DNA from: Candidatus Helarchaeota archaeon
Lineage (GTDB): Archaea > Asgardarchaeota > Lokiarchaeia > Helarchaeales > RDOG01
Assembly: GCA_019058315.1 (NCBI GenBank)
Contig: JAHPZH010000001.1
Span: 439,536 to 503,535 of the forward strand
DNA length: 64,000 bases
Direction of reading: 5' to 3'
Shown: positions 5,196 to 34,097 of the stretch, piece after piece
How positions within the stretch are numbered: the stretch's first letter is position 1
Layout of the letters: each line of letters opens with the position of its first letter
The notes under the pieces: generated by a model
The model's database searches: none
Told to the model about the DNA's origin: nothing
What the model saw: only the letters and a program-made list of their open reading frames with translations
Position numbers and translations under genes: made by a program

Positions 5196-5831
5196 ATGGA
5201 AAAGACTATTTTTGAAAAAATACAAGATTTCCTTGTAAGTTTAAAAATGGAAGAGTGCCTTACTTTAATTAAAAAAGGTATTAAAGAAAAGATCCCTGCT
5301 TATGAAATGATAATGAAAGGTATTTACGAAGCTATGAAGCAGATTGGTGAAAAATTTGAAAAAAGAGAATATTTTTTAGCAGAATTAATGTTTGCATCAA
5401 AAATAACGAACGAAGCAATCGAGTTATTAAAACCTCACTTAAATACTGCATTAGAAACATCAGGGAAAATACTGATTGGAACTGTTAGTGGAGATATGCA
5501 TGATATTGGGAAAAATATTGTTGGTACTTTATTAAAAACGAGTGGTATAGAAGTATATGACATTGGTGTAGATGTGCCAATTGAAGTTTGGATAGAAAAA
5601 ATTAAGGAAATAAAACCAAATATAGTTGGACTTTCTGGTTTGATGGCTGCTAGCGTTTCAAGCATGAGAAACACAATTCAGGCAATAGAAAAAAATCAAT
5701 TACGAGATAAAGTTAAAATTGTAATTGGTGGGGGAACTGTTTCACAAACAGTTGCTGATCAAATAGGGGCAGATGCATACGCGTATGATGCGATGGAGGG
5801 GTTAAAAATTATTAGAAAACTTTTAGATTGA
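5196..5831 (+). CDS. Corrinoid (B12-binding) methyl-carrier protein, MtaC/MttC-like
   Basis: Helical cap domain plus GDMHDIGKNIV (DxHxxG), GLSGL, IGGG. Confidence 0.93.
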   Translation: MEKTIFEKIQDFLVSLKMEECLTLIKKGIKEKIPAYEMIMKGIYEAMKQIGEKFEKREYFLAELMFASKITNEAIELLKPHLNTALETSGKILIGTVSGDMHDIGKNIVGTLLKTSGIEVYDIGVDVPIEVWIEKIKEIKPNIVGLSGLMAASVSSMRNTIQAIEKNQLRDKVKIVIGGGTVSQTVADQIGADAYAYDAMEGLKIIRKLLD

Positions 5832-5844
5832 GTGGTGAATATGA

Positions 5845-6912
5845 ATGTATGATTGGAAATCAAGAATAGAAAGAGTTTCAAATTCACTTTTAGGTGCAGA
5901 AGTCGATAGACCTCCATTTTTAATTATGGCAGCTGAACAAATGATAAGCCGTGTAATGGGTTGTACAATTCATGATTTATATAATGATGGGAAATATTGG
6001 GCAAAGGCTACTATTAAAACACAAGAATTTTTTGGTTCTGATGTTCCTTACGTATGTCTCGATCCCGCTTTACTCACTGCAGAAGCATTTGGAGCTAAAT
6101 TTATTCATCGAAAATATCTAACTTCGACTGCAACTCCCGAAGATAGATTGATTAAAACTCCAGAAGATGTAGACAAACTCGAAATTCCGGATTATAGTAA
6201 ATCAGGTTTATATCCAGAATTAGTTAAAGCCTTTAAATATTTGAAAGAATATACCCATAGCCCTGTAATCGATGGTTTCTTTTTTTCAGATTTAACTTGG
6301 GGTCCCATACAACAATTGAGAGGAGATCAAGCATGGATGGATTTTTATATGAATCCCGACCTACTTCCGAAGCTTGCAGAAAAAATTTATGAAGGAAATC
6401 TAGCCTTATTAGAATATTGGAGAAAAGAATTATGGCGTCCAATGATTGATTTAAACATTGCATATTTGGGAAATAAAGATATGGCTTCATACAAGGATTT
6501 TTGGGAGATTGAAGGAAAATGGATAAAAAAATTTAGACAAAAAACAGGTATGGGGGTAGTTCTTCATAATTGCGGGAGGCAGCCATACTGGGAAGGTATG
6601 ATAAAAGATATCAAGTTACTTGGAGTTCAAGCGACTTTTGATGAATTTGGTAATTCAGATGTAAATTATTGGAAGGAAATGAAGAAAAAACATAATATTT
6701 ATGTAATTGGAACTCTGAATCAAACAGGACCTACATTAACGGGTACTCCAGAGGATGTTGAAAAGGAAGTTATTGAAAATTTGGAAGCTTTAACTCCAGG
6801 TGGAAAGTTTATGTTATCCCATGGATGTGAAGTTGGCTGGGGAATACCTCTAGAAAATATAATGGCTGTTAAAACTGGTGTAGAAAAATTTTCAAAAATG
6901 GGTAACAAATAA
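5845..6912 (+). CDS. Uroporphyrinogen decarboxylase-superfamily methyltransferase (MtaA/CmuA-like)
   Basis: DRPP, AEAFG, LHNCG (HxC) and SHGCE Zn-ligand motifs; adjacent to the corrinoid protein. Confidence 0.8.
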   Translation: MYDWKSRIERVSNSLLGAEVDRPPFLIMAAEQMISRVMGCTIHDLYNDGKYWAKATIKTQEFFGSDVPYVCLDPALLTAEAFGAKFIHRKYLTSTATPEDRLIKTPEDVDKLEIPDYSKSGLYPELVKAFKYLKEYTHSPVIDGFFFSDLTWGPIQQLRGDQAWMDFYMNPDLLPKLAEKIYEGNLALLEYWRKELWRPMIDLNIAYLGNKDMASYKDFWEIEGKWIKKFRQKTGMGVVLHNCGRQPYWEGMIKDIKLLGVQATFDEFGNSDVNYWKEMKKKHNIYVIGTLNQTGPTLTGTPEDVEKEVIENLEALTPGGKFMLSHGCEVGWGIPLENIMAVKTGVEKFSKMGNK

Positions 6913-7704: not shown

Positions 7705-10527
7705 ATGACTAAAAATATCTTTGTGAAAGGTGCTAGAGAACATAATCTAAAAAATATCGACGTGGAAATACCTCGCAATAAATTAGTTGTTATTACAGGT
7801 ATTTCAGGTTCAGGAAAGTCTTCTTTAGCATTTGATACTATCTATGCAGAAGGGCAGAGAAGATATGTGGAAAGTCTTTCTGCATATGCTCGCCAATTTC
7901 TTGGAAAAATGATGAAACCAGATGTTGAGTATATCGAAGGGCTATCTCCTGCGATAGCAATCCAACAACGCCCACTTTCACACAATCCCAGAAGTACAGT
8001 GGGTACAGTAACCGAAATATTTGATTATTTAAGGTTACTTTTTGCAAGAATAGGAATCCCCCATTGTCATAATTGTGGTAAACCAATTAAACGACAAACA
8101 GTTCAAGAAATTGTTGATCAAATTTTAAATCTACCCGAACAAACTAAAATTATGGTTCTTGCCCCAGTAATTCGTGGACGAAAAGGTACTTATCAGAAAT
8201 TATTTACTGATTTAAAGAAAAAAGGTTTTGTTCGAGTTAAAGTTGATGATTCAATTTATAATTTGGATGAAAATATACCCCTAGATAAATACAAAAAACA
8301 CAATATTGACGTGATTGTCGATAGATTGGCTATCAAGTCTAAAATTAAGAAAATATTGACTGATTCAATTGAAACTGCTTTAAATTTGGCAGATAAAATT
8401 GTTAAAATCGAAGTAATAGATGAAAAATCCTCAAAAGAATTAATGTTCAGTCAACATTTTGCATGTTTAAATTGTAATCTTTCATTCGAAGAGTTAGAAC
8501 CGAGAAATTTTTCGTTTAACAGTCCATTTGGAAGTTGTCCTGTTTGTGAGGGACTTGGTAGTAGAATGGAAATTGATGCAGGTTTATTAATTCCAGATAA
8601 ATCCCTTTCAGTATATGATGGTGCTATAGCGGCTATAGGAGAATATCGAGATAATTATTATTTTCAAATGCTCGATTGTGTTGCAAATCATTATAATTTT
8701 AGCTTGGATACACCATTCCAAGAATTAGATGAGAAATTTCAAAAAATTATCCTATATGGTTCAAAAGATTCTATCAATTTCAAATTAGAAGGAAACATGA
8801 CTCATGAATATCGTAGAAGATTTGAAGGTATAATTAATGGCATGGAAAGAAGATATCGTGAAACAAAATCAGATTGGAGCAGAGCATATCATATGAAATT
8901 CATGACAAATCGGATTTGTCCTGAATGTAATGGTAAAAGGTTAAAACCTGAATCTTTAGCGGTCTTAATCAATAATAAATCAATTATGGATGTTTGCGAA
9001 TTATCTTGCACTCAGCTTCTAGAGTTTATTGAGAATCTAAAATTAACTGAACGAGAAAAAATTATCTCAAAAGAAGTTCTCAAAGAAATAAAACAAAGAT
9101 TAGAATTCTTGAAAAATGTTGGTTTAACATATTTAACTTTAGACAGAGAAGCAGGAACTCTTTCTGCTGGAGAATCTCAAAGAATTCATTTAGCAACTCA
9201 AATTGGTTCGAATCTAGTTGGAGTCCTTTATGTACTCGATGAACCAAGTATAGGTTTACATCAAAGAGATAATAAAAGATTATTAGAAACTTTAATTAAA
9301 TTACGAGATTTGGGAAATACTATTCTTGTTGTTGAACATGATCATGAAACTATTCTTACTGCAGATCATGTAATCGATCTTGGACCAGGAGCTGGAGAAC
9401 ATGGAGGTACTATAGTTGCATCGGGACCACCTGAAGTAATTATGGAAAATAAGAATTCATTAACTGGAAAATATTTAAGCGGAAAAGAAAAAATCGAGGT
9501 ACCAAAGGCACGACGGGAACCAAAAGGATGGCTTGAAATTAAAGGTGCCCAAGAACACAATCTAAAAAATATTGATGTAAAAATACCTCTTGGAACCTTT
9601 ACATGTATTACTGGAGTTAGTGGTGCCGGTAAAAGTACTCTTGTAAATGATATTCTATATAAAGTATTGGCAAAAAAAATTAATAGATCATCAGTTAAAC
9701 CCGGAAAACATTCTAAAATAACAGGAATCGAACAAATTGATAAAATTAATTTATGTGATCAATCTCCAATAGGTCGAACTCCGAGGTCTAACCCCGGAAC
9801 TTATACCAAAGTATTTGATGACATTCGAGCTTTATTTGCAAAAACCCCTGAGGCAAAAGCGAGAAGTTATAAACCTGGACGATTCAGTTTTAATGTTCGA
9901 GGAGGTAGATGTGAAGCTTGTCAAGGTTATGGCTTGGTAAGAATTGATATGTTTTTTCTTCCTCCTGTATATGTTCCCTGTGAAATCTGTAAAGGTGCTC
10001 GTTTTAATAGACAAACTTTAGAAATAAAATATAAAGGAAAGACGATAGAAGAGGTTCTAAATATGTCTGTAGAAGAAGGTCTAAAATTTTTTGAGAATAT
10101 CCCCAAAATTAAACGTAAACTCAAAATGTTATTTGATGTTGGGCTTGGATATATTAAAATTGGCCAATCCTCACCTACACTTAGTGGAGGAGAAGCACAA
10201 AGAATAAAGTTGGCTAGAGAATTAAGTAAGAAATCCACTGGTAATACTTTCTATATTCTTGATGAACCCACCACTGGTCTCTCTACGTATGATATTAAAA
10301 AACTTTTGAGTGTTTTACAAAGATTAATAGAAAAAGGAGAATGTAATTCTGTTCTGATTATTGAACATAATATGGATGTTATCAAATGTGCTGACTATAT
10401 AATTGATCTTGGACCTGAAGGTGGCGAAAATGGGGGAGAAATTGTTGCTGAGGGATCTCCAGAAAAAATTATTAAAAATGGAGAATCATATACTGGAGAA
10501 TTTCTAAAAGAGTATTTGAATAATTAG
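7705..10527 (+). CDS. uvrA: Excinuclease ABC subunit A
   Basis: GAREHNLKN, two ABC ATPase domains ([16 protein letters not shown]), zinc fingers, LSGGEAQR. Confidence 0.98.
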
Positions 10528-11882: not shown

Positions 11883-13133
11883 TTGGGAATCTACAAATTA
11901 AAATGTTTATCTTGTAATCGAATTCTAGAAGATGATTATACTCTTAAATGTAATAGTTGTGATGCATTAATAAGGACAGAATATGAAAAAAAACAATTAG
12001 AATTAAGAAATGATCTCCCAGGTATATGGAAATATATAGATTGGCTTCCGGTAAGTGACTATTTCGAAACTGATTCTTCGATAAAAACATATAAGAGCGA
12101 AGCATTAGCAAAAGAACTTGGTTTATCCAATTTATATATTTCATGTGCTGGATACTTTCCTGAGATTGGCGTTAAAAACAAAGCTTGCTCATTTAAAGAA
12201 CTAGAGTCAGTTCCTACTTATCAACGGATGAAAGAAAAAAAGAAAAAAGGTGTTATTTTAGCCTCTGCTGGAAATACTGGCATTAGTTTTGCCTATATGT
12301 CTAAAATAACAAAAATTCCGGCTATAATTGTAATTCCTGAATCCGCCAAACTTTTAGTTCCTTATCCTGAAATAGATACTGTTGTATTAATAGCAGTTAA
12401 AGGTAATGATTATTTTAATGCTATTCATTTAGCATCAAGGATTAATAAAGAAGGATTTGTTCCTGAGGGTGGTGCAAGAAACATAGCTCGAAGGGATGGA
12501 ATGGCATTGGTTATGATAGATGCTGCGTTTACTTTAAAAACACTTCCAGACCATTATTTCCAAGCTGTTGGAAGCGGTACTGGAGCTGTCAGCGTCTGGG
12601 AAGCCACTCTACGTCTTCTTGATGATGGAAGGTTTGGAAAGAAAAAAATCAAACTACATGTATCACAAAACCATCCCTTCAATCCGATCCATAATGCTTG
12701 GGCCAGAAAAGCAAAAGAAATAGATATAGATAAAGATATGTTGAATGCTTTTGAAAATATAAGTAAGGTTAAAGCTACGATGTTGACTAATAGAAAGCCT
12801 CCTTATTCTATTGTAGGTGGAGTATATGATGCTTTAATTGATACCAATGGGGAAACTTATGCAGTTACCAATAAAGAGATAGATTCTGCTGCTAAACTAT
12901 TTTATGAATTAGAAGGTATTGATATTCCAGCCGAGCCTGCAGTTGCAGTAGGGTCTTTAATACAAGCAATTGAGCAAAAAAAGGTTAATCTTTCCGATAA
13001 AATTCTACTTAATTTAACCGCTGCTGGATTTGAGAGACTTAAAAAAGATCATGGTTTATACCCATTAAAACCAACATATGTAGCAAAAAATGAGCATATT
13101 CCAATTGAAGAACTACCTCTAAATGATTTATAG
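11883..13133 (+). CDS. Cysteate synthase (PLP-dependent, threonine synthase family)
   Basis: N-terminal CxxC pair, CSFKELE PLP lysine, ASAGNT, EGGARNIARRDG, YFQAVGSGTG; directly upstream of comDE. Confidence 0.88.
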   Translation: MGIYKLKCLSCNRILEDDYTLKCNSCDALIRTEYEKKQLELRNDLPGIWKYIDWLPVSDYFETDSSIKTYKSEALAKELGLSNLYISCAGYFPEIGVKNKACSFKELESVPTYQRMKEKKKKGVILASAGNTGISFAYMSKITKIPAIIVIPESAKLLVPYPEIDTVVLIAVKGNDYFNAIHLASRINKEGFVPEGGARNIARRDGMALVMIDAAFTLKTLPDHYFQAVGSGTGAVSVWEATLRLLDDGRFGKKKIKLHVSQNHPFNPIHNAWARKAKEIDIDKDMLNAFENISKVKATMLTNRKPPYSIVGGVYDALIDTNGETYAVTNKEIDSAAKLFYELEGIDIPAEPAVAVGSLIQAIEQKKVNLSDKILLNLTAAGFERLKKDHGLYPLKPTYVAKNEHIPIEELPLNDL

Positions 13134-13145
13134 GATTTTAAAAAT

Positions 13146-14279
13146 ATGGAACCAGAATTGGAAATTATTGAAATATTAAAGAAAAACCAAATAGATCTCG
13201 CTCTTTCTGTTCCTTGTGCAAAAATAAAAAATTTACTCATTTTAATATCCAAAGAATTTAAGCATATCCCACTAACCAGGGAAGAAGAGGGGGTTGGAAC
13301 TGCTGCTGGTGCTTATTTAGCTGGTCTAAAACCTGTATTATTAATTCAATCTGGAGGAATTGGTAATTCTATAAATGCACTTATGTCATTATCCAAAGCT
13401 TATAGTCTACCCTTACCTATTATAATATCTTGGAGAGGAATACATAAAGAAAAAATTGAAGCACAAAAACCTATGGGTCAACATCTAATTAGAATATTAG
13501 AAGGTTGTGAAATACCTTATCTAAAAGTGGAAACCCCTAAAGATATAGAGAAAATAGATCAAGCAATTAAAGATAGTTTTAAAATTGAAACTCCTTATGC
13601 AATATTATTATCTCCAAGAATTTGGGAATCTAGCAAATTAAAACCTCAGACCATTGAATATCCGAAAAGAACTTCTGCTCTCTCTCTCACTTATAATAAA
13701 ATCTTAAGACCACCGACTTTAACTCGATATGAGGCTATTCAAACTCTCGTGCCTTATCTAAAGGATAAAATTATAATTTCAAATATTGGAATCCCAAGCA
13801 AAGAATTATATCATCTTCTCGAACAACCCTCAAACTTTTATATGCTCGGAAGTCTTGGTATGGCATCATCAATTGGTCTCGGTGTAGCATTAGGAACCTC
13901 GAAAAAAGAAATAATTGTTCTTGATGGTGATGGAAGTCTGTTATATAATCCAAATGCTTTATGTATGATTGGAAATTTAAGTCCCAAAAATCTTACAATA
14001 ATAGCCTTGGATAATGGTACGCATGGTTCAACTGGTGATCAAATTACTGCTGCATATAATCAAGTAGATTTAGAATTACTAGCAAGAAGTTTTGGAATAA
14101 AAAATACTGCAAAAGTCTATATTAAAGATGAAATAACAATTATGATCGAAACATTACAACTAGGTCCTCGATTTATTCATGCCATCCTAAAACCAGGAAG
14201 AATGGATGTAAAAAATATTCCTTTATCACCTGAGACTATTAAAAAAAGATTTATGGACTATTTACGGATGCATGGTTAA
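13146..14279 (+). CDS. comDE: Fused sulfopyruvate decarboxylase alpha/beta (TPP)
   Basis: REEEGVG in the alpha part; NFYMLGSLG and GDGS...DNG TPP motif in the beta part. Confidence 0.9.
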   Translation: MEPELEIIEILKKNQIDLALSVPCAKIKNLLILISKEFKHIPLTREEEGVGTAAGAYLAGLKPVLLIQSGGIGNSINALMSLSKAYSLPLPIIISWRGIHKEKIEAQKPMGQHLIRILEGCEIPYLKVETPKDIEKIDQAIKDSFKIETPYAILLSPRIWESSKLKPQTIEYPKRTSALSLTYNKILRPPTLTRYEAIQTLVPYLKDKIIISNIGIPSKELYHLLEQPSNFYMLGSLGMASSIGLGVALGTSKKEIIVLDGDGSLLYNPNALCMIGNLSPKNLTIIALDNGTHGSTGDQITAAYNQVDLELLARSFGIKNTAKVYIKDEITIMIETLQLGPRFIHAILKPGRMDVKNIPLSPETIKKRFMDYLRMHG

Positions 14280-14282
14280 AAG

Positions 14283-14909
14283 ATGGAAAAAGAAAAAATT
14301 AAAAAAAATGATTTTATTAAAGAAATATTTAAAGACCCTCGAATTCCGGAAGAATTGGGCATAAATAGATGTATACAATGCGGAAATTGTTCAGCTTCAT
14401 GTCCTGCAGCTAGACATTCATCATATAGACCTAGAAAGATTATGCAAGAAATCCTTCTTGGAGCAAGGAATAATTTACTTGAAAATGAAGATATTTGGTT
14501 ATGTTATTCTTGTTTTTCATGTAATCTAAGATGCCCTAGAAATAATAATCCTGGCGTTATAATTCATGTTCTTAGACAATTAGCCTTAAAAGAAGGCCAT
14601 GGTTGGGAAAAAGTCGTTAAATTTAAATTTTATTTAGAAAGTCTACGAGATTCAGGTATAGGATGGTCTACCAAAGCTCAAACTATCGAATATTTTAAAG
14701 AATTAGAAAATGATTGGGTCGAAATCATAAAAAATATGCCTGAAGTTTTAAAAGAATTAAGTATGAATCCAAATAGTCCACGCGAATTGCCAAAAGAAGC
14801 AAGAGATCAAATAAAGAAAATTTTAGAATTAGCAAATATCAATGAGGATATTTCGGAATTTGAGGAGAAAGAAGAGAAAATTCAAAAACAGAAAAATGAA
14901 GAAAAATAG
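14283..14909 (+). CDS. hdrC: Heterodisulfide reductase subunit C
   Basis: CIQCGNCSASCP and CYSCFSCNLRCP 2x[4Fe-4S]. Confidence 0.92.
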   Translation: MEKEKIKKNDFIKEIFKDPRIPEELGINRCIQCGNCSASCPAARHSSYRPRKIMQEILLGARNNLLENEDIWLCYSCFSCNLRCPRNNNPGVIIHVLRQLALKEGHGWEKVVKFKFYLESLRDSGIGWSTKAQTIEYFKELENDWVEIIKNMPEVLKELSMNPNSPRELPKEARDQIKKILELANINEDISEFEEKEEKIQKQKNEEK

Positions 14910-14918
14910 GTATATAAA

Positions 14919-15857
14919 ATGGAAAAATTAATTCCCGATAAAGGTTACTATTTATTTAAAAGTTGTATGTTAGGATTAGAATATCCGGGGGCAGAAGAAT
15001 CTGTAAGATTCATTTATAAAAAATTAAATCTTGATTTTTTCGATGATCCCAGACAAAGTTGTTGTAGTGGTATGGGTATTAATCTCGATTTAGTATCTCC
15101 TTTAATAACAACTGTTTTAGCGGCGAGAAATTTTACATTGGCAAATCAATCAAATCATCCTTATATGACTACACTATGTTCTACTTGTTATGGAGTACTA
15201 AAAGAATCCTGTGAATGGATAGAAAAAGATATAAAATTAAAGAATAAGGTTGAGGAGATATTACAAAAAGCTAATTTGAATTTTAGAATGGAATATATGA
15301 AGCCTGAGAATGTATTTCACGCAATCGAAATATTTTATAAGTGGCGAGACAAAATTTCAGAACTTGTTAAATTAGATTTTAGTGGTATTAAAATTGCTAC
15401 ACATCATGGCTGTCATTTTTTCAAATTATTTCCTGATCAAGTAAAAGGAGATCCAGAAAATCTAACAATTATGGATGAATTGGTAAAATCTGTTGGTGCT
15501 GATTTAATAGTTTGGTATCCTGAAAAAAATTCATGTTGTGGTTCTGGCTTTCGCCACCGAATTATGAAAACCGAACTTGCTAATAATGCAGGTTTTGATA
15601 AATTAAAATCTGTAAAAAATGCAGGCGCAGAGATCTTGGTTAATATGTGTCCAATGTGCCACTTTCAATTTGATAGATATGAAAAAATCTATGAACAATT
15701 AAAAAATAAGGAATTGGGATTAATTCATTTGAATATTGCACAACTTATAGCTCTTGCATTAGGAGCAGATCCATATAAAATTGTTGGAATCCAAACACAT
15801 TCTATAAAGGTTGAACCTTTATTAAAAAAACTCGATATATTAATTAAGAATAAATGA
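14919..15857 (+). CDS. hdrB: Heterodisulfide reductase subunit B
   Basis: Two CCG domains (QSCCSG/CSTC; HGCH, SCCGSG/CPMC). Confidence 0.92.
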   Translation: MEKLIPDKGYYLFKSCMLGLEYPGAEESVRFIYKKLNLDFFDDPRQSCCSGMGINLDLVSPLITTVLAARNFTLANQSNHPYMTTLCSTCYGVLKESCEWIEKDIKLKNKVEEILQKANLNFRMEYMKPENVFHAIEIFYKWRDKISELVKLDFSGIKIATHHGCHFFKLFPDQVKGDPENLTIMDELVKSVGADLIVWYPEKNSCCGSGFRHRIMKTELANNAGFDKLKSVKNAGAEILVNMCPMCHFQFDRYEKIYEQLKNKELGLIHLNIAQLIALALGADPYKIVGIQTHSIKVEPLLKKLDILIKNK

Positions 15858-15873
15858 TTAGAAAGTTATTACC

Positions 15874-18222
15874 ATGTTTGAAATTTCCCCTCGTGTTGGT
15901 GTTTTCATTTGTAGATGTGGTCGAAACATAGCTGAAATTATTAATTTAGATGAGGTTATTCAGGAAATTAAGAAAGTTAAAGATGTAGTTTGTGTTGAGA
16001 CCAATACATTTATGTGTTCACTTCCTGGTCAAAGTCTTTTACAGAAAAAAATAATGGAATTAAGTTTAAATAGAATAGTGATTGCTGCTTGTAGTCTAAA
16101 AGTTCATAAAACTATGTTTGAAACCGTTCTAGAAAATGCACGTTTAAATCCTTATTTACTTGAAATCGCAAATATTCGTGAACAAGATTCGTGGGTGCAT
16201 CAAACAAACTCGAAAGAAGCAACTCAAAAAGCTATCTCCTTGATAAAAGGTGCTATTCATAAAGCAAGATATCTACAAAGTTTAGAAAATATACGGCAAC
16301 CAGTAAAGAAAAATGTGTTAGTCGTAGGTGGTGGGATTGCAGGGATATCTGCTTCAATATCATTAGCAAGAAGCGGGTATAATGTCTTTTTAGTAGAAAA
16401 AGATGTTACGATAGGTGGTAATATGGTAAAGTTAGTTAAGACTTACCCAGATGAAGAATGTGCGATGTGTACAATTTCTCCCTTGATGACAGAAATAGCT
16501 CAAAATCCCAATATAACACTCTATACAGGAGCTGAATTAAAAGAATGGACAGGTTCTGTGGGCAATTTTAATGTAATAATTCAACATAATCCAAGATATG
16601 TAGATATAAATAAGTGTCTTGCATGTGGAAATTGTGAAGTAGTTTGTCCAACAACAGTCACAGATGAATGGAATTGTAATTTAGGTACCAGAAAAGCTAT
16701 TTATAGAAGTTTCCCAGAAGCAGTTCCAAATGCATTTGCTATTGATGAAAAAAATTGTTTATTTTTAAAAAGTTCGAGAGAATCTAAAGTTTGTCAAAAA
16801 TGTGTTGATGTTTGTTCTGGTCATGCAATTAATTTTAATGAAAAACCAACGACGACAACTCTTGAAGTGGGATCCATTATTGTAACTACAGGACATAAAG
16901 ATTATGATCCCAGTTTAAAACCAAATTTAGGATATAACCGATACAAAGATGTAATAACTATAATGCAATGTGCTCGATTATTAGATATTAATGGACCTAC
17001 AAAGGGAATATTTAAACGCCCTTCAGATAATCAAATACCTAAAAGAGTAGTTTTTCTTCAATGTGTAGGTTCTCGAGATGAAAAACCATCTGGACATAAA
17101 TATTGTTCCAAAATTTGTTGTATGTCCGCTTTAAAGTATGCGAGTATGATTAAAAAAGGCTATAATACTGATGTTGTAATTAGTTATACCGATATAAGAG
17201 CCACAGGATTTAATGAAAATTATTATAGATATGTTCAGGATTTAGGAGTTCGATTTATAAGAGGTAAAGTTTCGGACGTATATAAAGAGAATGGAAGTTT
17301 GACAGTAAGATTAGAAGACACTTTATCTGGCAAAATGTTGGAATTAGAGACGGATTTGATTGTCTTATCCACAGCATTAGAACCTTCATTAGGCACCGTT
17401 GAAATTGCAAAAAATTTAGGTCTATTAACAACAGAAGACAGTTTTGTTAAAGAAGATCATTTGAAACTACGCCCAATAAATACTAGTATCCAAGGTATTT
17501 TTGCAGCAGGAACTGCTCTGGGACCTAAGGACATAGCAGAATCTGTTTCACAAGCAAGTGGTGCCGCTAGTAAAGTAGAGGAAATCCTAAGAAAAGGTAT
17601 TATTGAAATTCCTCCCGAAATAGCCTTTGTCCACCCTGAAAAATGTACTGGTTGTGGTAGATGTATCGAAATATGTCCCTATCAAGCAATTGAAAAAATA
17701 AATGAAATAATTTATATCAAACCTCTCGTTTGCACTGGTTGTGGTGCATGTGTTCCTGAATGCCCCGAGAACGCTTTAGATCTAACACATTTAACCGAAA
17801 GGCAACTTTTATCTCAAATTGATGGGATTCTATCTGATAATACCATGAAACCAATTATCCTTGCATTTTTAGAAAGTAGCATGGCTTATAGTGCAGCAGA
17901 TAATGCTGGAATAAAAAAAATCCAATATCCTCCTAATATAAGAATAATAGCAGTCCCTTCTACAGCCTATATTAAATTAGAACATATTCTTTATGCATTC
18001 GAAAAAGGAGCGGACGGCATCTTATTAGGCGAAGGTCCTGAAGAAGGACCTGTGGGTAAAGTTATCCCAATTATGGATGAAAGAATTAAAAAATATGCCA
18101 AAAAATTGGAGGAAAAAGGAATAGATCCATTCAAATTATGGTTTAACAAAATATATATAACAGAAGGGGAGAAGCTAGTTGATCTTTTTAAAACCTTTAC
18201 AGATTCATTGGATGAGGATTAA
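15874..18222 (+). CDS. hdrA: Heterodisulfide reductase subunit A with fused Cys-less MvhD-like domain
   Basis: CRCG, ANIREQDSWVH, GGGIAG FAD site, QCVGSRD/YCSKICC, ferredoxin domains, C-terminal GADG MvhD-like fold. Confidence 0.95.
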   Translation: MFEISPRVGVFICRCGRNIAEIINLDEVIQEIKKVKDVVCVETNTFMCSLPGQSLLQKKIMELSLNRIVIAACSLKVHKTMFETVLENARLNPYLLEIANIREQDSWVHQTNSKEATQKAISLIKGAIHKARYLQSLENIRQPVKKNVLVVGGGIAGISASISLARSGYNVFLVEKDVTIGGNMVKLVKTYPDEECAMCTISPLMTEIAQNPNITLYTGAELKEWTGSVGNFNVIIQHNPRYVDINKCLACGNCEVVCPTTVTDEWNCNLGTRKAIYRSFPEAVPNAFAIDEKNCLFLKSSRESKVCQKCVDVCSGHAINFNEKPTTTTLEVGSIIVTTGHKDYDPSLKPNLGYNRYKDVITIMQCARLLDINGPTKGIFKRPSDNQIPKRVVFLQCVGSRDEKPSGHKYCSKICCMSALKYASMIKKGYNTDVVISYTDIRATGFNENYYRYVQDLGVRFIRGKVSDVYKENGSLTVRLEDTLSGKMLELETDLIVLSTALEPSLGTVEIAKNLGLLTTEDSFVKEDHLKLRPINTSIQGIFAAGTALGPKDIAESVSQASGAASKVEEILRKGIIEIPPEIAFVHPEKCTGCGRCIEICPYQAIEKINEIIYIKPLVCTGCGACVPECPENALDLTHLTERQLLSQIDGILSDNTMKPIILAFLESSMAYSAADNAGIKKIQYPPNIRIIAVPSTAYIKLEHILYAFEKGADGILLGEGPEEGPVGKVIPIMDERIKKYAKKLEEKGIDPFKLWFNKIYITEGEKLVDLFKTFTDSLDED

Positions 18223-18311
18223 ATAATTTTTTAAACTAATTTTTAAACCATAAAAACTTAAGAAGATTGTATTCTAATTATTACCAAATTTTTATTAAAA
18301 TGTGATAAAAG

Positions 18312-19247
18312 ATGGTAAGACCTTTAAAATATCTCTTAATTAAAGAATACGAAGAAACTAAGCCTGAAGAGTTGCCAAACCTTCCACTTGAAGCTATTGA
18401 AGGAATTGTTGAAGAGGATATGATAGGATTTAAAGAAATGGATATTAATAACCTTACTGAGCTTTCCGAAGCAAAATTTTCAAAATTAAAGGGAAAAGAA
18501 CTTAGTGATTATAAGGTTAATAAGGGAATTTCTTATGCGATAGATATAATGATTCAATCAAACGAACCCGGTGTTCATGAAGAAATTATGCCCCTAGATG
18601 AGTTACTAATTAGAGAATACGAACCCACTCCACCGAAAGATTTAGCTGATTTACCTACAGTTGCTATTGAAGGCGTAGCTCCGAGAGGTGAGAAATTATT
18701 AAAAGAAATTGGTATAAAAACAGTCAAAGAATTTGCAGATTCAGATATAAAAAAGATAAAAACATCAAAGCTCTATGATTGGGAAGCAGAGAAATATTTA
18801 GAATATGCAAGATGGATAATAAATTATGCTGATGAGAAAATTAAGAAGCCAGATACGGAAAATATTGAATTTAAAACTAAAGGAGATAATTTGATCCTTA
18901 CATTCGATAAAACAAAAGAATTCGGTCCATCAGCCACGGGTAAAACGATTATTGTTGCCCATTCTCATGGAGGTCAACGAATTAAGGGGACTGATCTGAG
19001 TTTCGGAATGTATGCATATAAATATCCAACGAAAAAGGCAATAAAACAAAAAAAAGTTAAAGAAATGCAAAATATAGCTATAAAAGTTGCTGGTAATATT
19101 GTAACACTAACAGTTAACATGAAAGAAGATTATGGTTCTTCAGCCTCAGGCAAAAGTTCGATAGTCGCATCATCCAGAGGAAATAAGCTAATTGAAGATA
19201 CTGGGGTGTATGTAGGTTTAAATGTTTACAGGCAAGAAAAGAAATAA
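18312..19247 (+). CDS. Hypothetical protein with A-A-B-B internal duplication
   Basis: Two PLxxLLIxEYE...LPxxAIEG (HhH-like) units and two NI...G-x-S-x-x-GK[TS]xIVA...G..G..VY units. Confidence 0.7.
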   Translation: MVRPLKYLLIKEYEETKPEELPNLPLEAIEGIVEEDMIGFKEMDINNLTELSEAKFSKLKGKELSDYKVNKGISYAIDIMIQSNEPGVHEEIMPLDELLIREYEPTPPKDLADLPTVAIEGVAPRGEKLLKEIGIKTVKEFADSDIKKIKTSKLYDWEAEKYLEYARWIINYADEKIKKPDTENIEFKTKGDNLILTFDKTKEFGPSATGKTIIVAHSHGGQRIKGTDLSFGMYAYKYPTKKAIKQKKVKEMQNIAIKVAGNIVTLTVNMKEDYGSSASGKSSIVASSRGNKLIEDTGVYVGLNVYRQEKK

Positions 19248-19474
19248 ATAAAACAGGGAATAACTTTACTATATGAAATTTTTTTCTCTTTTTTTAGAGT
19301 TTTTTATTTTTAATAGAAAATTAAGTTGTTATAGTCATTTTTTAAATTCTTTAACAAGATTTACATTATAAAAAAAAAGAGATAACATTATTATATTTTT
19401 ATAATATTCAGATTTGGAATTAATCTCGTTGGTATAAAATCTTTAAAACCTGTTTAATAGAAGAGTAGTTAATA

Positions 19475-20743
19475 ATGAAGGAACGAAGTGTTGAAGAAAT
19501 TCAAGAAAAAATAAATGAGGGGAAAGCTAATATATTTACTGCACAAGAATTGTGCGATTTAATTAATAAAGGGGAGAAAATCGATTTTGAGGATATAGAT
19601 GTCATAACTACTGCAACGAAAGGTCTAATGAGTGGGACTACTGCAATTGTTTCATTCAGAGTCTCAGAACCTAAGAAATTCCAAAAAGCAAAGAAAATGA
19701 CTCTTAATGGAATTCCTGCTTATGTAGGTCCATGTCCTAATGAATATCTAGGGGTTGTAGATGCTATAATTTTTGGTACAGAGCATAGTTTAGAAAATCC
19801 CAACTATGGTGGGGGTCACCTATTTCGCGATCTTATTGAAAACAAAGAAATAGATGTTATAGTAGAGACAATTGAAAATATGGAAATAAAAAGTAAAGTA
19901 AAGCTTCAAGATATGGGCTATGCTAAAATGCTTGCAATAAGAAATGCATTTAAAAATTATTTAGCATTTGTGAACCCGACTCATAATCCAGTAAAAACTA
20001 TTTTTTCAGCTACTGATTTTAAAGGTCCTCTTTATGAGGCAACTTTTTGCGGTTGTGGGGCATTAAATCCCATTCAAAATGATCCTGAAATGGAAGTATT
20101 TGGAATAGGAACACCCATTTTAATGAATGGTGCCAAAGGATATATCATAGGGGAAGGTACTAGAAGTACTAAAGAAAAACCGAATTTAACAGCAATTGCC
20201 GATATAAAAAACATGAAACCCGAATATGCTGGAGGATTCATGACTTCTGCAGGTCCAGAAGTAATTAATACATGGGCAGTCCCCATACCTATTTTAAATG
20301 AGAAAATTTTAAATAATGTAAAGAAATTAGACAAAGATATTCATTTAACAATAGTGGATGTAGTTGGTAGAGGTCCTCTCGGAGAAACCACATATGGAGA
20401 AGTTTGGAAAAAGGGATATTCAATAGATTTTAAAGAAAATGGCTGTAAAAATTGTCCTAATTTAGAAACATGTAAAATTGATGAAATTTGCCCCACTAAT
20501 GCATTCGTTAAAGATAAAGGAATCGATAAATCTCTTTGTTTTAATTGTGGAACGTGTTTGATTCATTGTGTCCAAGACGCCTTCGAAGGAAATATGAGCA
20601 CAATTAAGCTTGGTAATAAAGAAATTCCAATAGTGTGCCGCCAATCTGATAGAATGGGTGCAATTAAATTAGCTGATGAACTAAAAAACCTTATTTTAAA
20701 AGATAAATTTCCGTTAGTCAAACCTACTGATAAAATTTATTAA
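19475..20743 (+). CDS. Methanogenesis marker 16 metalloprotein (DUF39 + ferredoxin), candidate CoM synthase ComF
   Basis: MSGT, GPCPNE, YGGGHLF, GCGALNPIQNDP, CRQSDR, internal ferredoxin Cys motifs, no CBS domains; near comDE. Confidence 0.82.
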   Translation: MKERSVEEIQEKINEGKANIFTAQELCDLINKGEKIDFEDIDVITTATKGLMSGTTAIVSFRVSEPKKFQKAKKMTLNGIPAYVGPCPNEYLGVVDAIIFGTEHSLENPNYGGGHLFRDLIENKEIDVIVETIENMEIKSKVKLQDMGYAKMLAIRNAFKNYLAFVNPTHNPVKTIFSATDFKGPLYEATFCGCGALNPIQNDPEMEVFGIGTPILMNGAKGYIIGEGTRSTKEKPNLTAIADIKNMKPEYAGGFMTSAGPEVINTWAVPIPILNEKILNNVKKLDKDIHLTIVDVVGRGPLGETTYGEVWKKGYSIDFKENGCKNCPNLETCKIDEICPTNAFVKDKGIDKSLCFNCGTCLIHCVQDAFEGNMSTIKLGNKEIPIVCRQSDRMGAIKLADELKNLILKDKFPLVKPTDKIY

Positions 20744-20833: not shown

Positions 20834-21256
20834 TTGCTAACAAATGAAGAATTAAAAAAATATATAAAAAAAATTTCTGATTATATGAAAAATGCTGATG
20901 CCCAACAATCCCAAACTTGTGGTTATTTAAGAGATCTTTCGAATGTTTTTCATTCAATTTCATTTCTTAAACAAAATGGTAATTATGGCATGATGGATTC
21001 AGCAATTTTCCAATTTCAATCAACACTTTCACAAGTACCTCAAGACCTAAAATCTGAAGTTAGCCAAAAACTAAGGGAACTAACCTTAAATTTTTCTCGG
21101 CAATTAGATACAATCGTTGAAAACATTACAGACCTGGAAAATGGAAGCATTGATATTTTTAAAGCTATTGCTAACTTATTCCTATGTGTTGAAAACTTAT
21201 TTAGATTAAAAGATTCAATTGGATCCTATCCAAGACCTGCACCCTTTCCTATGTAA
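20834..21256 (+). CDS. Hypothetical helical protein, tandem paralog 1
   Basis: 140 aa, TTG start, ends RPAPFPM. Confidence 0.75.
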   Translation: MLTNEELKKYIKKISDYMKNADAQQSQTCGYLRDLSNVFHSISFLKQNGNYGMMDSAIFQFQSTLSQVPQDLKSEVSQKLRELTLNFSRQLDTIVENITDLENGSIDIFKAIANLFLCVENLFRLKDSIGSYPRPAPFPM

Positions 21257-21316: not shown

Positions 21317-21739
21317 TTGCTGACAAATGAAGAATTGAAAGAAAATATGCTAAAAATAGCAGATTATATGAAAAAACCTGATGCACAAAATTCCCAAATA
21401 AGTGTGTATTTAAAAAATCTCTCAAATACTTTTTATGCGTTATTAATTGTTAAAGATAACGGAAATTATGCTATGTTACAAGCTGTGATTATTCAATTTC
21501 AAATGACACTTCAACAAATGCCTCAAGATATAAAATCAGATATTAAACAAAAACTCAGAGAATTATTTCTAAATTTTTCTCGAGAATTAAGTATTATTGC
21601 TGAAAATTTAGCACAGTTAGATAGCGGAAATATGGAAATTTATAAAGCTACTTCTAATTTATATCTTTATGTTAATAAATTGTTTAAATTAAAAGAATTA
21701 ACTGTTTCCTATCAAAGACCTGCACCTTTTCCTATGTAA
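21317..21739 (+). CDS. Hypothetical helical protein, tandem paralog 2
   Basis: 140 aa, colinear with the previous ORF, ends RPAPFPM. Confidence 0.75.
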   Translation: MLTNEELKENMLKIADYMKKPDAQNSQISVYLKNLSNTFYALLIVKDNGNYAMLQAVIIQFQMTLQQMPQDIKSDIKQKLRELFLNFSRELSIIAENLAQLDSGNMEIYKATSNLYLYVNKLFKLKELTVSYQRPAPFPM

Positions 21740-21769: not shown

Positions 21770-22504
21770 TTGGAATTTTATGAAGAATTTATTGAAAAAT
21801 ATGATAAGTTAGTCTCTTGGGAGAATAGAGTTACAAGAGAATCAAATTTCTATAAAACAGTTTTTTCTAATAATGATGTTAAAACAATATTGGACTGTGC
21901 TTGTGGAACAGGACATCATGTTATTATGTTAAAACAAATGGGATATGATGTCAAAGGGTCTGATATTTCTCCTGCAATGATTCAAAAAGCTAAAAGTAAT
22001 TCTGATAAATTAGGTTTGAAGATTCCATTAAAAATCTCTGATTTTAAAAATATTTCTAAAATATATAGTGAACAATTTGATGCAGTAATTTGTGTTGGCA
22101 ATTCTTTACCACATTTGTTTACAAACAAGGAAATTTTTGAGGCTCTTAGCGAAATATATAAAGTTCTAAGGCAAAATGGTATTTTTATTTTGGAGCAAAG
22201 AAATTATGATAAATTAACTAAGTTCCAAACTCGGTTTTTTCCAGTTACTTTCAGAGAAGACGAGATTTTTTTCTATGTCCTGGATTATTTTCCAAAAAAA
22301 ATTGTTTTTAATGTAATTGATTTAGAAATTAATTCCAAAAAATTTCATGTTTTTACTACAGAATATAATCCAATCAAAAAAGAAAATTTAGTAGAATTAT
22401 TAGAAAAATCTGGATTTAAGAACTTTAAATACCATCAAGATCATGAATTCAGCGAATTTAATATAGAAAAAAGTGATAATTTAATTATAATTTGCAAAAA
22501 GTAG
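21770..22504 (+). CDS. Class I SAM-dependent methyltransferase (glycine/sarcosine N-methyltransferase-like)
   Basis: ILDCACGTG, FDAVICVGNSLPHL, RNYD. Confidence 0.85.
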   Translation: MEFYEEFIEKYDKLVSWENRVTRESNFYKTVFSNNDVKTILDCACGTGHHVIMLKQMGYDVKGSDISPAMIQKAKSNSDKLGLKIPLKISDFKNISKIYSEQFDAVICVGNSLPHLFTNKEIFEALSEIYKVLRQNGIFILEQRNYDKLTKFQTRFFPVTFREDEIFFYVLDYFPKKIVFNVIDLEINSKKFHVFTTEYNPIKKENLVELLEKSGFKNFKYHQDHEFSEFNIEKSDNLIIICKK

Positions 22505-22728: not shown

Positions 22729-25236
22729 CTAAATCCATCTAAAAACATTTGAACAAACAGGACATCTTTTATGTTGATCCACATAAGCGATAATACAGTC
22801 CTTATGGAATGGTGTATTACAATTCTCACACTTGGTATATGCATGGGTCTCAATATTTGTATAACATATAGCGCATAGATTTCCACTAATGAGTTGATAT
22901 TCTTCTAATTCTTCATAATTAACTTTCTTTAATGGTATGAATTTGGAATCTGAAATCTCTCCTTTTATAATTCCTCTATCAAGGAGTTCTCTAAGCCAAG
23001 ATTCCATTTCACGTAAATTAATCTCAAATTTATTTGCCAGTTCTTTGAGTCTTATTTCATCAATTGAACTGAGAAAAATTTGTATTTTTCTTATATCAAG
23101 AGCCCTTATTTTATCTAATTCGTCAAGACTTCTCAACCTATCCAAATTTCCAATATTTGCTATTGTGTCTTGAATATAATAATCATTTGAAATATAACCT
23201 TTTATTTCTTCGTTAAGTATTAACTCTTCTAATATATTTTCCAATTCACTAACTGGATATCTGCATTTTTCAGCTAATTTGCTTAAATGTATGCTTTTAT
23301 ATATTTTAGAATATTTTTTCAATTTACTTTTTACTAATTCTACATCTTGAGTTTCCGCAATAAATTCATTTCCTCTCAATACTTCCTCTTCTTCACTAAA
23401 TTCCTGAATAGATTGAGGAATTTCAAAAACATCAGAAAATAAATTCTCAAATTTATCTTGCACTTTAACCAAAGCTGATATTGCTACACGATTATTGGGA
23501 TCAATTTCAATAATCTTATTTAAAGCATTCATCGCTTTCGGATAATCTTTTATAAAAATTCCATAAGTTTTTGCTTTTTCAAACCAGATATCAGTATTTT
23601 GAGGATTGATTTCAAGTGCTTGGTCCAATATTTCAATCGATTTTTGTGGATCATTTAATTTTTTATAAACCGAACTTAATTTTATCCAAGAATTAACATA
23701 TTTAGGGTCTATCTCAAGAACTTTTTCAAAATATTTAATAGCATCTTCAAAGTTTTTAAATTCTATCTCTTTTTCCCCAATTTTATGCCAAAATGAAGTT
23801 ATAGGTAATTTTATACTTTTTAGTCTTTCTTTAGATGTTGTAATGGCGGAATCAGAAGGATTTCCACGAATAAAAATATTTTTCTGACTTAATAAGTAAT
23901 TTAATACCACATTTTCATAACCTAATTCATTTAATGTTTCAAAGCATTCAAAGGTCTCTCTATAATCTTTTAAATAAAAATAAGCAATTCCCATACTTAA
24001 CCATGCTTCAATATTTCTCTCGTCCATTTTAATGATTTTTCTAAATAAAAGAATTGCTTTTTTGTAATATTTTAATTCCAAATAAGCAGATGCCTTATTA
24101 AACCAAAAAAATATCATTTCTGAACTAACTTTCAACAATCTAACTCTTCTTCTATCAAGTCCTTTTACTCTAAATGAATCTTCTATATGCCGTATAACTT
24201 CTAAATCTCTTAATTTAATTAATTTTGTTGCAGCTGAATGCCTAACTGCATAATCTTTGTCTTTTAAAGCTATAAACAAAAAAAATAATACTCTTAAATT
24301 AATTAATGCTGCCAAACTTTCTACAATTGCTTTCCTAATTTCACTATCTTCATCATTTAATAATTTAATTAATGGTCTTATTGCCCCTTTATCGCCTATC
24401 TCCCCCAAAGCTTTTATAGCAGCATATTTCAAATCTCTATCTTTATCTTCTAAAGTTTCAATTAAAGGTTCTACGGCTTTTATATAACCAAGCTTTCCTA
24501 AGCTAAAAGCTGCACTACATCTAACAGTTACGTCACTATCTTTTAAAGCTTCAATTAAAGGATCCACAGCCCTCTCATCATTAAGTTTACCCAAACTTTC
24601 TGCTACAACATACCGAATCTCTGATCTTTCATCCTTCAAACACTCGATCAAAGGTAAAGTTGCTGATAAATCGCCAAAATTGCCTAAACTTCTAGCAATA
24701 AGAAATCTTATCGACCAATCATCATCTTTTAATCCTTTTATAAAAGCTTCAATTATTATATCCTTTTTTAAATTTGCTAGACTTTGAGCAGCTACCCACC
24801 TAACCCCTTCATACTCATCATGCAACAAAGCATCAATTAATGGTTCAATCACCCTCGGGCTATCAAATTTAGACAATTTCTTTGCCGCAGAAAATCTAAC
24901 AAAATGATTTTCACCCTTTAATGCATCAATTAAAGGGGTAATTAGCTGTTTATCATTATATTCGGCTAACCAATTTGCTAAAAACCACTTTAACGCACCA
25001 GTATCTTCTTTAAATAAAGGTAACAATTTTTCGGCTGCATTTGAATCCCCTAAAATACTCAAGCTTTTAGCTGCATTAGAACGAACTAAATAATCATTAT
25101 CTTTCAAAGCTTTAATTAAAGGTTTTACTGCCTTAAAATCACCGAGTTTACCTAGCTTTTTTGCTGCCTTTCGGCGTTTAACCTCATCAGCATTATTTAA
25201 TCTTTCTATTAAAGAACTTAATTCCTCTTCCGACAT
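22729..25236 (-). CDS. HEAT-repeat/TPR/double PCI (winged helix)/RING protein, putative E3 ligase scaffold
   Basis: About eleven PBS-lyase HEAT repeats, TPRs, two LxxLA...E..L..LI....IKGxI PCI motifs, C-terminal C4HC3 RING. Confidence 0.85.
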   Translation of the reverse strand: MSEEELSSLIERLNNADEVKRRKAAKKLGKLGDFKAVKPLIKALKDNDYLVRSNAAKSLSILGDSNAAEKLLPLFKEDTGALKWFLANWLAEYNDKQLITPLIDALKGENHFVRFSAAKKLSKFDSPRVIEPLIDALLHDEYEGVRWVAAQSLANLKKDIIIEAFIKGLKDDDWSIRFLIARSLGNFGDLSATLPLIECLKDERSEIRYVVAESLGKLNDERAVDPLIEALKDSDVTVRCSAAFSLGKLGYIKAVEPLIETLEDKDRDLKYAAIKALGEIGDKGAIRPLIKLLNDEDSEIRKAIVESLAALINLRVLFFLFIALKDKDYAVRHSAATKLIKLRDLEVIRHIEDSFRVKGLDRRRVRLLKVSSEMIFFWFNKASAYLELKYYKKAILLFRKIIKMDERNIEAWLSMGIAYFYLKDYRETFECFETLNELGYENVVLNYLLSQKNIFIRGNPSDSAITTSKERLKSIKLPITSFWHKIGEKEIEFKNFEDAIKYFEKVLEIDPKYVNSWIKLSSVYKKLNDPQKSIEILDQALEINPQNTDIWFEKAKTYGIFIKDYPKAMNALNKIIEIDPNNRVAISALVKVQDKFENLFSDVFEIPQSIQEFSEEEEVLRGNEFIAETQDVELVKSKLKKYSKIYKSIHLSKLAEKCRYPVSELENILEELILNEEIKGYISNDYYIQDTIANIGNLDRLRSLDELDKIRALDIRKIQIFLSSIDEIRLKELANKFEINLREMESWLRELLDRGIIKGEISDSKFIPLKKVNYEELEEYQLISGNLCAICYTNIETHAYTKCENCNTPFHKDCIIAYVDQHKRCPVCSNVFRWI

Positions 25237-33500: not shown

Positions 33501-34097
33501 TTATTGCCAATATTTTCCTTGTGCACAAGAAATACAAAGATTTTTTCCATCTTTTTTAATAACTCTAGTTGCCATTACTCCCTCATGACAATTCTCACAA
33601 ATAATAGTATTAAAAATTTGGGCTTCAGGTGGAATTTTCATTTGAACATTTTCAATTTTAAGGTAATCGCTTTGAGGCCTTTCTAATATTTTAAACATTA
33701 TCTTTTTTAGGAATTCTTTTCTTTCATCAGCGTTCAGGTTTTTCATTTCTTCACGCAAATCGCCTAAAATATTCCTTATTTGTGAAAAATCAAAACTCAA
33801 CCGAATTCCTTTTCCTGTAGTTCTATTAAATATTGTTGCAGCAGTTTTTCCATAATCTTTTAAAATCAAATTTCCTTTTCCTAGTGATGTGCCTAAAACA
33901 ATTTGAAGTGCGTCCACCATACAAGATTGCCCTTCCGAAATCGTAACTACTTCTTCATCAATGGATCTTGATGCTGCCAATTCTTTTAATGCGATAATCC
34001 CGATAATCATACCAGAAAGTAACCCAGGACAACTATGTCCATGAAATTCAACAGCTTTATCCCATAATCCAGTAATATCTAAATCCATATTCATCAT
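33501..34097 (-). CDS. FmdE-family protein with C-terminal zinc finger
   Basis: FHGHSCPG, CMVDALQ, GKGNL, CENC...CISC. Confidence 0.92.
   Translation of the reverse strand: MMNMDLDITGLWDKAVEFHGHSCPGLLSGMIIGIIALKELAASRSIDEEVVTISEGQSCMVDALQIVLGTSLGKGNLILKDYGKTAATIFNRTTGKGIRLSFDFSQIRNILGDLREEMKNLNADERKEFLKKIMFKILERPQSDYLKIENVQMKIPPEAQIFNTIICENCHEGVMATRVIKKDGKNLCISCAQGKYWQ

Follow-up and report, generated by a model that had tools for sequence, protein, structure and literature searches.

Seven open reading frames (ORFs), all on the + strand, fill positions 11883-20743 of the window, the 64,000-nucleotide stretch of a Candidatus Helarchaeota genome that was analysed here. Six of them form a block in the order cs-comDE-hdrC-hdrB-hdrA-MMP16, in which genes for a heterodisulfide reductase (Hdr)-like complex are embedded among genes for coenzyme M (CoM) biosynthesis. 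The intergenic gaps are 12, 3, 9 and 16 bp up to hdrA, followed by gaps of 89 bp and 227 bp on either side of a hypothetical gene. In order, the Pfam domains are PALP; TPP_N and TPP_C; 4Fe-4S dicluster; two CCG; FAD/ferredoxin/FlpD; and HcyBio. Gene identities were based on the NCBIfam curated models and their equivalog or trusted cut-offs, where cs, comDE and MMP16 were found above the cut-offs while hdrC, hdrB and hdrA scored best on Hdr models yet below the equivalog cut-offs. The ORF list and the curated models agree with an earlier account of this DNA made from its letters alone (the sequence-only reading) in coordinates, gene order, identities, the 3-16 bp spacing up to hdrA, the hypothetical gene and MMP16.

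The first gene (cs, 11883..13133, +) encodes 416 aa from a TTG start and scores 508 bits on TIGR03844 (cut-off 324.9), the model of cysteate synthase, which forms cysteate from phosphoserine and sulfite. Threonine synthase models gave at most 74 bits on this protein, and the genome has ThrC-like genes of its own at C11:87507 and C11:796246, on which the cysteate synthase model gives only 88 and 50 bits; a threonine synthase identity was therefore ruled out. Among the control genomes TIGR03844 was passed solely by M. acetivorans, and the ComD and MMP16 models solely by the two methanogens. By curated model the product is thus confirmed as a cysteate synthase with predicted catalysis. The second gene (13146..14279, +) encodes a fused sulfopyruvate decarboxylase, ComDE, of 377 aa with both halves in one protein. 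The alpha half passes TIGR03845 at residues 6-160 (207 bits, cut-off 148) and the beta half narrowly passes TIGR03846 at residues 194-373 (224.8 bits, cut-off 221.5). Phosphonopyruvate decarboxylase was ruled out, as its model gave 224.9 bits against a cut-off of 312.5 and the phosphoenolpyruvate mutase model TIGR02320 found no match in this 94% complete genome.

The last gene (19475..20743, +) encodes MMP16/ComF, a putative CoM synthase of 422 aa that scores 510 bits on TIGR03287 (cut-off 364). Its COG1900d domain carries an inserted two-cluster ferredoxin domain, and the HcyBio match covers residues 18-414. The ferredoxin segment has eight cysteines at 324-365, seven of them invariant in seven orthologues, and C87, C192 and C194 are likewise invariant. 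Judged by similar offsets, C87 and C192-x-C194 may correspond to Cys95 and Cys200/202 of M. acetivorans, the cysteines conserved in COG1900d (PMC12068725). The sulfurtransferase acting on L-aspartate semialdehyde (L-ASST; MA1821-22, COG1900a with a small ferredoxin protein) is likewise of the COG1900/HcyBio fold family, and its reaction, by which an aldehyde becomes a thiol, is an analogous one for which electrons and a sulfur donor are required (PMC12068725). Unlike the L-ASST type, the window protein passes the MMP16 model, and a separate L-ASST-type COG1900 paralogue was found at C9:183750-184757; an L-ASST identity was therefore ruled out. The three misassignments that the sequence-only reading had named as threats to its own proposal, namely threonine synthase, phosphonopyruvate decarboxylase and L-ASST, have thus all been set aside.

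Three Hdr genes separate comDE from the downstream part of the block. The HdrC-like subunit (14283..14909, +; 208 aa) has two CX2CX2CX3C motifs, formed by cysteines 30, 33, 36, 40 and 74, 77, 80, 84, and matches HdrC models best (153.5 bits, cut-off 350). The HdrB-like catalytic subunit (14919..15857, +; 312 aa) has two CCG domains with cysteines at 16, 48, 49, 87, 90 and at 165, 206, 207, 244, 247, and scores 360 bits on NF041780 (cut-off 450). It aligns over its full length to the solved chains 8rvu_b and 5odc_B, and both HdrB and HdrC retain all cysteine motifs of the solved enzymes. The HdrA-like flavoprotein (15874..18222, +; 782 aa; 865 bits, cut-off 1300) matches 5odc_A with residues 5-655 (590 bits), and its FAD motif GGGIAG and Fe-S cysteine groups are invariant in seven orthologues. 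Fused to it is a C-terminal MvhD-like domain (17848..18222, +), which is free of cysteine and aligns to 5odc_D (E 7e-13).

The order cs-comDE-hdrC-hdrB-hdrA-MMP16 was found in ten other Helarchaeales contigs, two from reference genomes and eight from metagenomes or assemblies, and because of this recurrence the arrangement is not due to chance. Block proteins are 51-85% identical among the copies, and both order and tight spacing are maintained over two families at 55-67% protein identity while at least three distinct flanking contexts occur. In several copies hdrA and MMP16 overlap by 1 base or are spaced by 4-5 bp. MMP16 therefore co-occurs with the sulfoacetaldehyde genes (cs-comDE) in the block here and in all ten related contigs; clustering of this kind has already been recorded as common (PMC12068725). 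In the second Helarchaeales family, a divergent PycTM-domain gene precedes the block in four of five loci (L068, L074, L075 and L076, not L066), and a DUF362 gene lies directly after it in L068, L074 and L076 and at a distance in L066. Another arrangement was seen in G006, a genome of the same family as the window but without cs-comDE, where MMP16 comes immediately after the genes for a short-chain dehydrogenase and for a thiamine diphosphate (ThDP) enzyme (L047 9936-13808). The ThDP enzyme has 575 aa, is acetolactate-synthase/Xsc-like and falls below all curated cut-offs; the pair may provide another route to sulfoacetaldehyde.

The gene between hdrA and MMP16 (18312..19247, +) encodes a hypothetical protein of 311 aa with internal repeats. 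It has no family match and no Atlas match, its predicted fold is unusable (mean pLDDT 39), and one partial paralogue was found on C2. Since no gene occupies this place in any of the ten related clusters, the 311-aa gene is, as judged from the gene orders, an insertion peculiar to this genome and lies outside the conserved module. T-rich tracts were observed 3' of the gene, and MMP16 in this genome may as a result have a promoter of its own.

The block genes leave one reaction of the pathway to a gene elsewhere. Absence of the aminotransferase from the window, as noted in the sequence-only reading, holds for the ORFs at 1289-37166, where none was found and beyond which the scan did not extend. 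Eight class I/II aminotransferases are encoded elsewhere in the genome, one of which could perform the transamination. ComA was missing in each of the seven genomes of the order, and therefore only the type-2 (phosphoserine) route is present, with no phosphoenolpyruvate route. Together with the scores of cs, ComDE and MMP16, this agrees with the phosphoserine route ending in ComF that had been read from the sequence.

The genome assembly comprises 12 contigs that total 5.79 Mb, its G+C content is about 30%, and close homologues of its HdrB carry the NCBI names Candidatus Helarchaeota or Promethearchaeota. A search for mcr/acr and cfb genes, which the sequence-only reading had suggested, yielded three full-length divergent mcrA (acrA-like) homologues of 542-560 bits, all below the methyl-CoM reductase (MCR) cut-off of 768. 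Among 400 sampled Asgard genomes, such divergent genes occur in all seven of the order and in none of the 393 others. Two component-A2 genes pass their cut-off, one of them directly after an acrA-like gene, and adjacent NifH-like and NifD-like genes on C12 are as expected for CfbC and CfbD of F430 synthesis. The assignment of the host to a Helarchaeales Asgard archaeon with an alkyl-CoM reductase (Acr) metabolism, which had been anticipated from the window, therefore holds on these gene contents. Because divergent mcrA, A2 activators and CfbCD-like genes are all present, a supply of CoM by the block to alkyl-CoM reductases is well supported.

The sequence-only reading had also considered CoM as a general thiol. 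In its broader form, this explanation gives CoM, or else a sulfonate intermediate, the part of a general thiol or of an osmolyte that has no connection with alkyl-CoM reductase, and it draws on the distribution of the early genes. Cysteate synthase was above its cut-off in 13 Asgard genomes without mcrA (L050-L064), usually beside ComDE, so that the pair is seen in at least 13 such genomes; of five examined for MMP16, four lacked it and one (G398) had it. Against this stand the three acrA-like genes, A2 and CfbCD-like genes of the present genome, and the Hdr-containing block, which within Asgard archaea was found only in the Acr-bearing order. A general-thiol role is not needed for this genome and we regard it as very improbable. 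ComDE relatives found by a scan of genome contigs were only bacterial cs-comDE pairs (43-47% identity) and a lone ComDE-like match of 29% in an Actinokineospora genome bin, and no Hdr-like module was found upstream of the cs-comDE locus L004 of a Nitrospiraceae.

The Hdr of the block is one of many in this genome, which has 12 HdrB-like genes in 5.8 Mb and about 20 HdrA-like genes. Several of the latter contain two or three in-frame TGA codons (e.g. C3:41573-43513, C11:388537-390477 and C5:663781-665709), which are possible selenocysteine sites. These genes include two other HdrC-HdrB sets, on C11 and C5. The C5 set consists of HdrC-HdrB-HdrA(MvhD)-polyferredoxin. The C11 pair (L072 9908-15857, equal to C11:75907-81856) is without HdrA and is preceded by three genes of the HGD-D (2-hydroxyacyl-CoA dehydratase) type and by one for a BcrAD-type activator ATPase; its HdrB is the top scorer of the genome on the canonical HdrB model (448 bits). 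Among the seven genomes, only the three reference genomes that also have cs-comDE carry orthologues of HdrB (59-64% identity) and HdrA (66-67%) from the block. In the other four acrA-bearing genomes, three of which have MMP16, the closest HdrB is 30-32% and the closest HdrA 40-45% identical, while the C5-type HdrB has clear homologues (39-55%) in five of the seven.

A tree of HdrB places the in-block proteins in a monophyletic clade found only in Helarchaeales (98% SH-aLRT), and all 11 members with readable context sit in the block. This clade is sister to a group containing Methanobacteriales HdrB. The tree, which comes from a quick search and has several long branches, shows a private clade and does not discriminate between substrates. 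We propose from these patterns that the in-block Hdr is a dedicated paralogue and not the general heterodisulfide reductase of the cell. Of the nearest HdrB relatives outside Helarchaeales, P0023 lacks an upstream ComDE on its contig of 2.7 kb. The nearest relatives outside both Helarchaeales and methanogens (P0024 and P0028, loci L070 and L071) occur among ThiS, ThiF, TusA, DsrE/DsrH and PALP genes, a context that suggests Hdr-like modules in sulfur-carrier pathways, although these belong to different clades.

In Mvh-Hdr complexes, electrons from hydrogenase or formate dehydrogenase enter through the [2Fe-2S] cluster of the MvhD domain, of which we take the MvhD cysteines to be the ligands. 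Each MvhD (5odc_D) cysteine in the aligned stretch is substituted in the in-block HdrA, and no cysteine occurs after residue 640 in any of the seven orthologues; the C5 HdrA paralogue, for its part, keeps five cysteines in the MvhD-like domain. As the MvhD-aligned cysteines are lost, the mechanism of the in-block Hdr cannot be quite that of the canonical bifurcating enzyme. The simplest inference from the residues is that it would act as a ferredoxin-linked disulfide reductase, or that the degenerate MvhD-like domain would have a docking role. The block enzyme shares with HdrABC-MvhAGD of methanogens (PDB 5odc, 8rvu, 7bkb) a full-length alignment and the CCG, HdrC cysteine and HdrA FAD/Fe-S motifs, but its subunits are below the equivalog cut-offs, MvhD is fused to HdrA with the aligned cysteines gone, and its neighbours include neither hydrogenase nor formate dehydrogenase genes. 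An MvhD-fused HdrA is also found in HdrA2B2C2 of M. acetivorans, which is ferredoxin- and F420H2-dependent (PMC5296606). The HdrA2 model is among the top matches of the in-block HdrA (845 bits, cut-off 1100), whose MvhD-like domain is cysteine-free, whereas the C5:447321 paralogue fits HdrA2 better, with 1066 bits, cysteines kept and a polyferredoxin next to it.

An Hdr module beside MMP16 was also observed outside Helarchaeales. We scored 80 metagenome loci with MMP16 relatives, together with loci fetched earlier, for nearby HdrB-like genes, and 53 of these had sufficient flank on both sides. Twelve showed the Helarchaeales arrangement and in six a fused HdrCB directly adjoined MMP16. The fused proteins have 470-540 aa, with HdrC and HdrB in one chain, and form a separate HdrB clade. 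They show three arrangements. The L122 type reads HdrCB-MMP16-cs-class III aminotransferase, as known from tblastn and partial annotation only, and L158 reads HdrCB-MMP16-acetyltransferase-ComA-ComB-ComD-ComE and thus belongs to the ComA/ComB route. In L159, from a Hadarchaeales genome, HdrCB is divergent from MMP16-cs-comDE. HdrCB fusions therefore occur in three other archaeal lineages and on both CoM routes, and in all four lineages, Helarchaeales included, a CCG-domain Hdr module adjoins MMP16 in a CoM operon. No HdrA was found within 6 kb on either side at L158 and L159. The aminotransferase at L122 12795-14069, directly after HdrCB-MMP16-cs, is by its position a candidate for the cysteate to sulfopyruvate step.

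The Hdr-adjacent state requires about eight changes on the MMP16 tree and therefore the link was gained or lost repeatedly. Because HdrB-like genes are rare, a chance adjacency is unlikely; by our own estimate it is about 1-2% per locus. These numbers bear on the explanation that the linkage is functionally meaningless, the Hdr genes having come in as passengers during assembly or transfer of the block and being kept by inertia. The three or more flanking contexts, which imply that the block moves as a unit, and the cs-comDE pairs without Hdr in other Asgard lineages fit such a history, but the order and spacing kept across two divergent families, the confinement of all 11 placed paralogue members to the block, the independent HdrCB-MMP16 adjacency and the rarity of HdrB-like genes make it improbable. 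The Hadarchaeales L159 genome has 16 CCG domain matches in several proteins, a count that does not settle whether its HdrCB is the main Hdr. As this genome also has acrA-like genes, it does not separate a role of Hdr in CoM supply from one in recycling.

We considered what the Hdr could do in the block. In the proposed pathway, the conserved Helarchaeales module cs-comDE-hdrC-hdrB-hdrA-comF would supply CoM to an archaeon that activates alkanes by alkyl-CoM reductases. Cs would convert phosphoserine and sulfite to cysteate, an aminotransferase encoded elsewhere would convert cysteate to sulfopyruvate, ComDE would decarboxylate sulfopyruvate to sulfoacetaldehyde, and MMP16/ComF would reductively thiolate sulfoacetaldehyde to CoM. 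The in-block Hdr would be the ferredoxin-linked disulfide or persulfide reductase of this supply arm, either delivering electrons to the ComF step or releasing free CoM-SH by reduction of a mixed disulfide or a persulfide of CoM. With either option, Hdr would determine how large the pool of new CoM is and in which redox state it is kept. Substrate and role being read from gene context and residues, we give such a supply function an even chance. It is favoured over that of a main recycling enzyme, though not proven, because the paralogue tracks the biosynthetic genes rather than Acr, because the usual electron entry is lost in the in-block HdrA, and because Hdr modules adjoin MMP16 in distant lineages.

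The sequence-only reading had instead paired CoM synthesis with disulfide recycling. On that account the in-block Hdr simply recycles CoM-S-S-CoB, the heterodisulfide of CoM and coenzyme B, for the Acr cycle and owes its place in the CoM operon solely to the joint regulation of supply and recycling. It gains from the full-length similarity to solved HdrABC with its catalytic cysteine motifs kept, from the position of the in-block HdrB clade beside the one containing Methanobacteriales HdrB, from the known link in regulation between hdrABC and cs/comDE of M. acetivorans (PMC12068725, PMC12713407) and from the need of all Acr organisms for Hdr activity (PMC6478937). It accounts less well for the absence of the paralogue from four Acr-bearing Helarchaeales, other HdrCBA sets being widespread, for an MvhD-like domain without any MvhD-aligned cysteine, and for the HdrCB fusions that adjoin MMP16 without HdrA. 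A plain recycling role is therefore not clearly supported, and we consider it possible though not the probable one.

Several observations weigh against the supply function and keep recycling a serious explanation. Among named proteins, those closest to the in-block HdrB are genuine HdrB of methanogens (41-44% identity) and, as the catalytic cysteine motifs are also kept, CoM-S-S-CoB is still a plausible substrate. The orthologue absences rest on genome bins that are 82-94% complete, and on seven reference genomes of related lineages. MMP16 was without a nearby Hdr in 35 of the 53 loci. Among these are the locus of G398 (87% complete), which has cs-comDE-MMP16 with no mcrA detected, and a clade of 20 loci whose divergent cs-comDE/MMP16 layout is taken to be the Methanosarcina type. 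Three Helarchaeales genomes carry MMP16 and lack an in-block-type Hdr. Furthermore, M. jannaschii MMP16 alone enabled E. coli to form CoM from sulfoacetaldehyde (PMC12068725).

The supply function can be extended to other lineages, where CoM synthase would be a two-part enzyme in many archaea. An HdrB/HdrC-type CCG module would then be the missing partner of MMP16/ComF and would act, while sulfoacetaldehyde is reductively thiolated, as electron donor or as reductant of an intermediate that is a persulfide or a mixed disulfide, being joined by HdrA in Helarchaeales and present as fused HdrCB elsewhere. The MvhD-like domain of Helarchaeales would be a docking piece and not an electron carrier. 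This extension is tentative and we think it rather doubtful. The last step of CoM synthesis is the least understood part of the cofactor pathway on which all methane and alkane metabolism of archaea depends, and the private Hdr paralogue, the HdrCB-MMP16 pattern and the cysteine-less electron-entry domain together provide a concrete candidate for a ComF partner. In addition, the block distinguishes Helarchaeales able to make CoM from those probably reliant on another route or on uptake, which is relevant to cultivation.

The nearest described counterpart is the type-2 locus of M. acetivorans with cs (MA3297), comDE (MA3298) and MMP16/comF (MA3299), which has the same three enzyme families and a fused ComDE (PMC12068725, PMC12713407). 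In that methanogen hdrA1C1B1 (MA3126-3128) is unlinked and only co-regulated, whereas in Helarchaeales, the Asgard alkane oxidisers that host the block, hdrC-hdrB-hdrA lies between comDE and comF. Chadwick et al. 2025 identified MMP16 as the primary CoM synthase of M. acetivorans, where starvation for CoM leads to induction of cs, comDE and hdrABC and mutants of MMP16 show odd behaviour; the ComF step requires two or four electrons and an unknown sulfur species (PMC12068725). Work from the Buan laboratory has shown that cs/comDE are induced on deletion of hdrABC and that total CoM then falls to 16.7 nmol per mg, about 41% less than the 28.2 nmol per mg before (PMC12713407). In the S1 Table of PMC12068725, Helarchaeales genomes appear that have comDE, cysteate synthase and MMP16, besides HEL-GB-B with MMP16 only and HEL-GB-A with none, and our counts match it. 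The presence of cs/comDE/MMP16 in some Helarchaeales is therefore already published and not new. An HdrB or HdrC neighbour of MMP16 does not come up in the main text of PMC12068725, hdrABC figures in the Helarchaeota paper solely as the recycler of the heterodisulfide (PMC6478937), and our literature search found no paper combining Helarchaeales with CoM biosynthesis or MMP16 with HdrB. The new points are the recurring six-gene block, the private Hdr paralogue, the loss of the MvhD-domain cysteines and the HdrCB-MMP16 adjacency in three other lineages.

The surroundings of the block contain further genes. Bacterial-type uvrB (2831-4804), uvrA (7705-10527) and uvrC (26940-28391) flank it, and between uvrB and uvrA, 5 kb upstream of the block, lie a corrinoid-binding protein with B12-binding domains (211 aa) and a URO-D family protein (355 aa) at 5196-6912. 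We take URO-D to be the family of MtaA/MtbA-type methylcobalamin:CoM methyltransferases, and by this family membership the pair could be a CoM-linked alkyl or methyl transferase. Downstream of the block are two tandem 140-aa paralogues of no family that are 57% identical (20834-21256 and 21317-21739), followed by a glycine/sarcosine N-methyltransferase-like gene (21770-22504). All three are missing at the locus of the closest relative, which has the uvrA, HEAT/TPR/RING and MFS flanks in common with the window. The 835-aa protein at 22729-25236 (-) has HEAT, TPR and PCI domains and a C-terminal RING finger, a eukaryote-like architecture, and leucine-rich repeat (LRR) proteins are likewise encoded in the window. 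Farther downstream of the block, 30904-32091 (-) encodes an acyl-CoA dehydrogenase, which would presumably fit the beta-oxidation proposed for Helarchaeota, and 33501-34097 (-) encodes an FmdE-domain protein with a DksA-type zinc finger.

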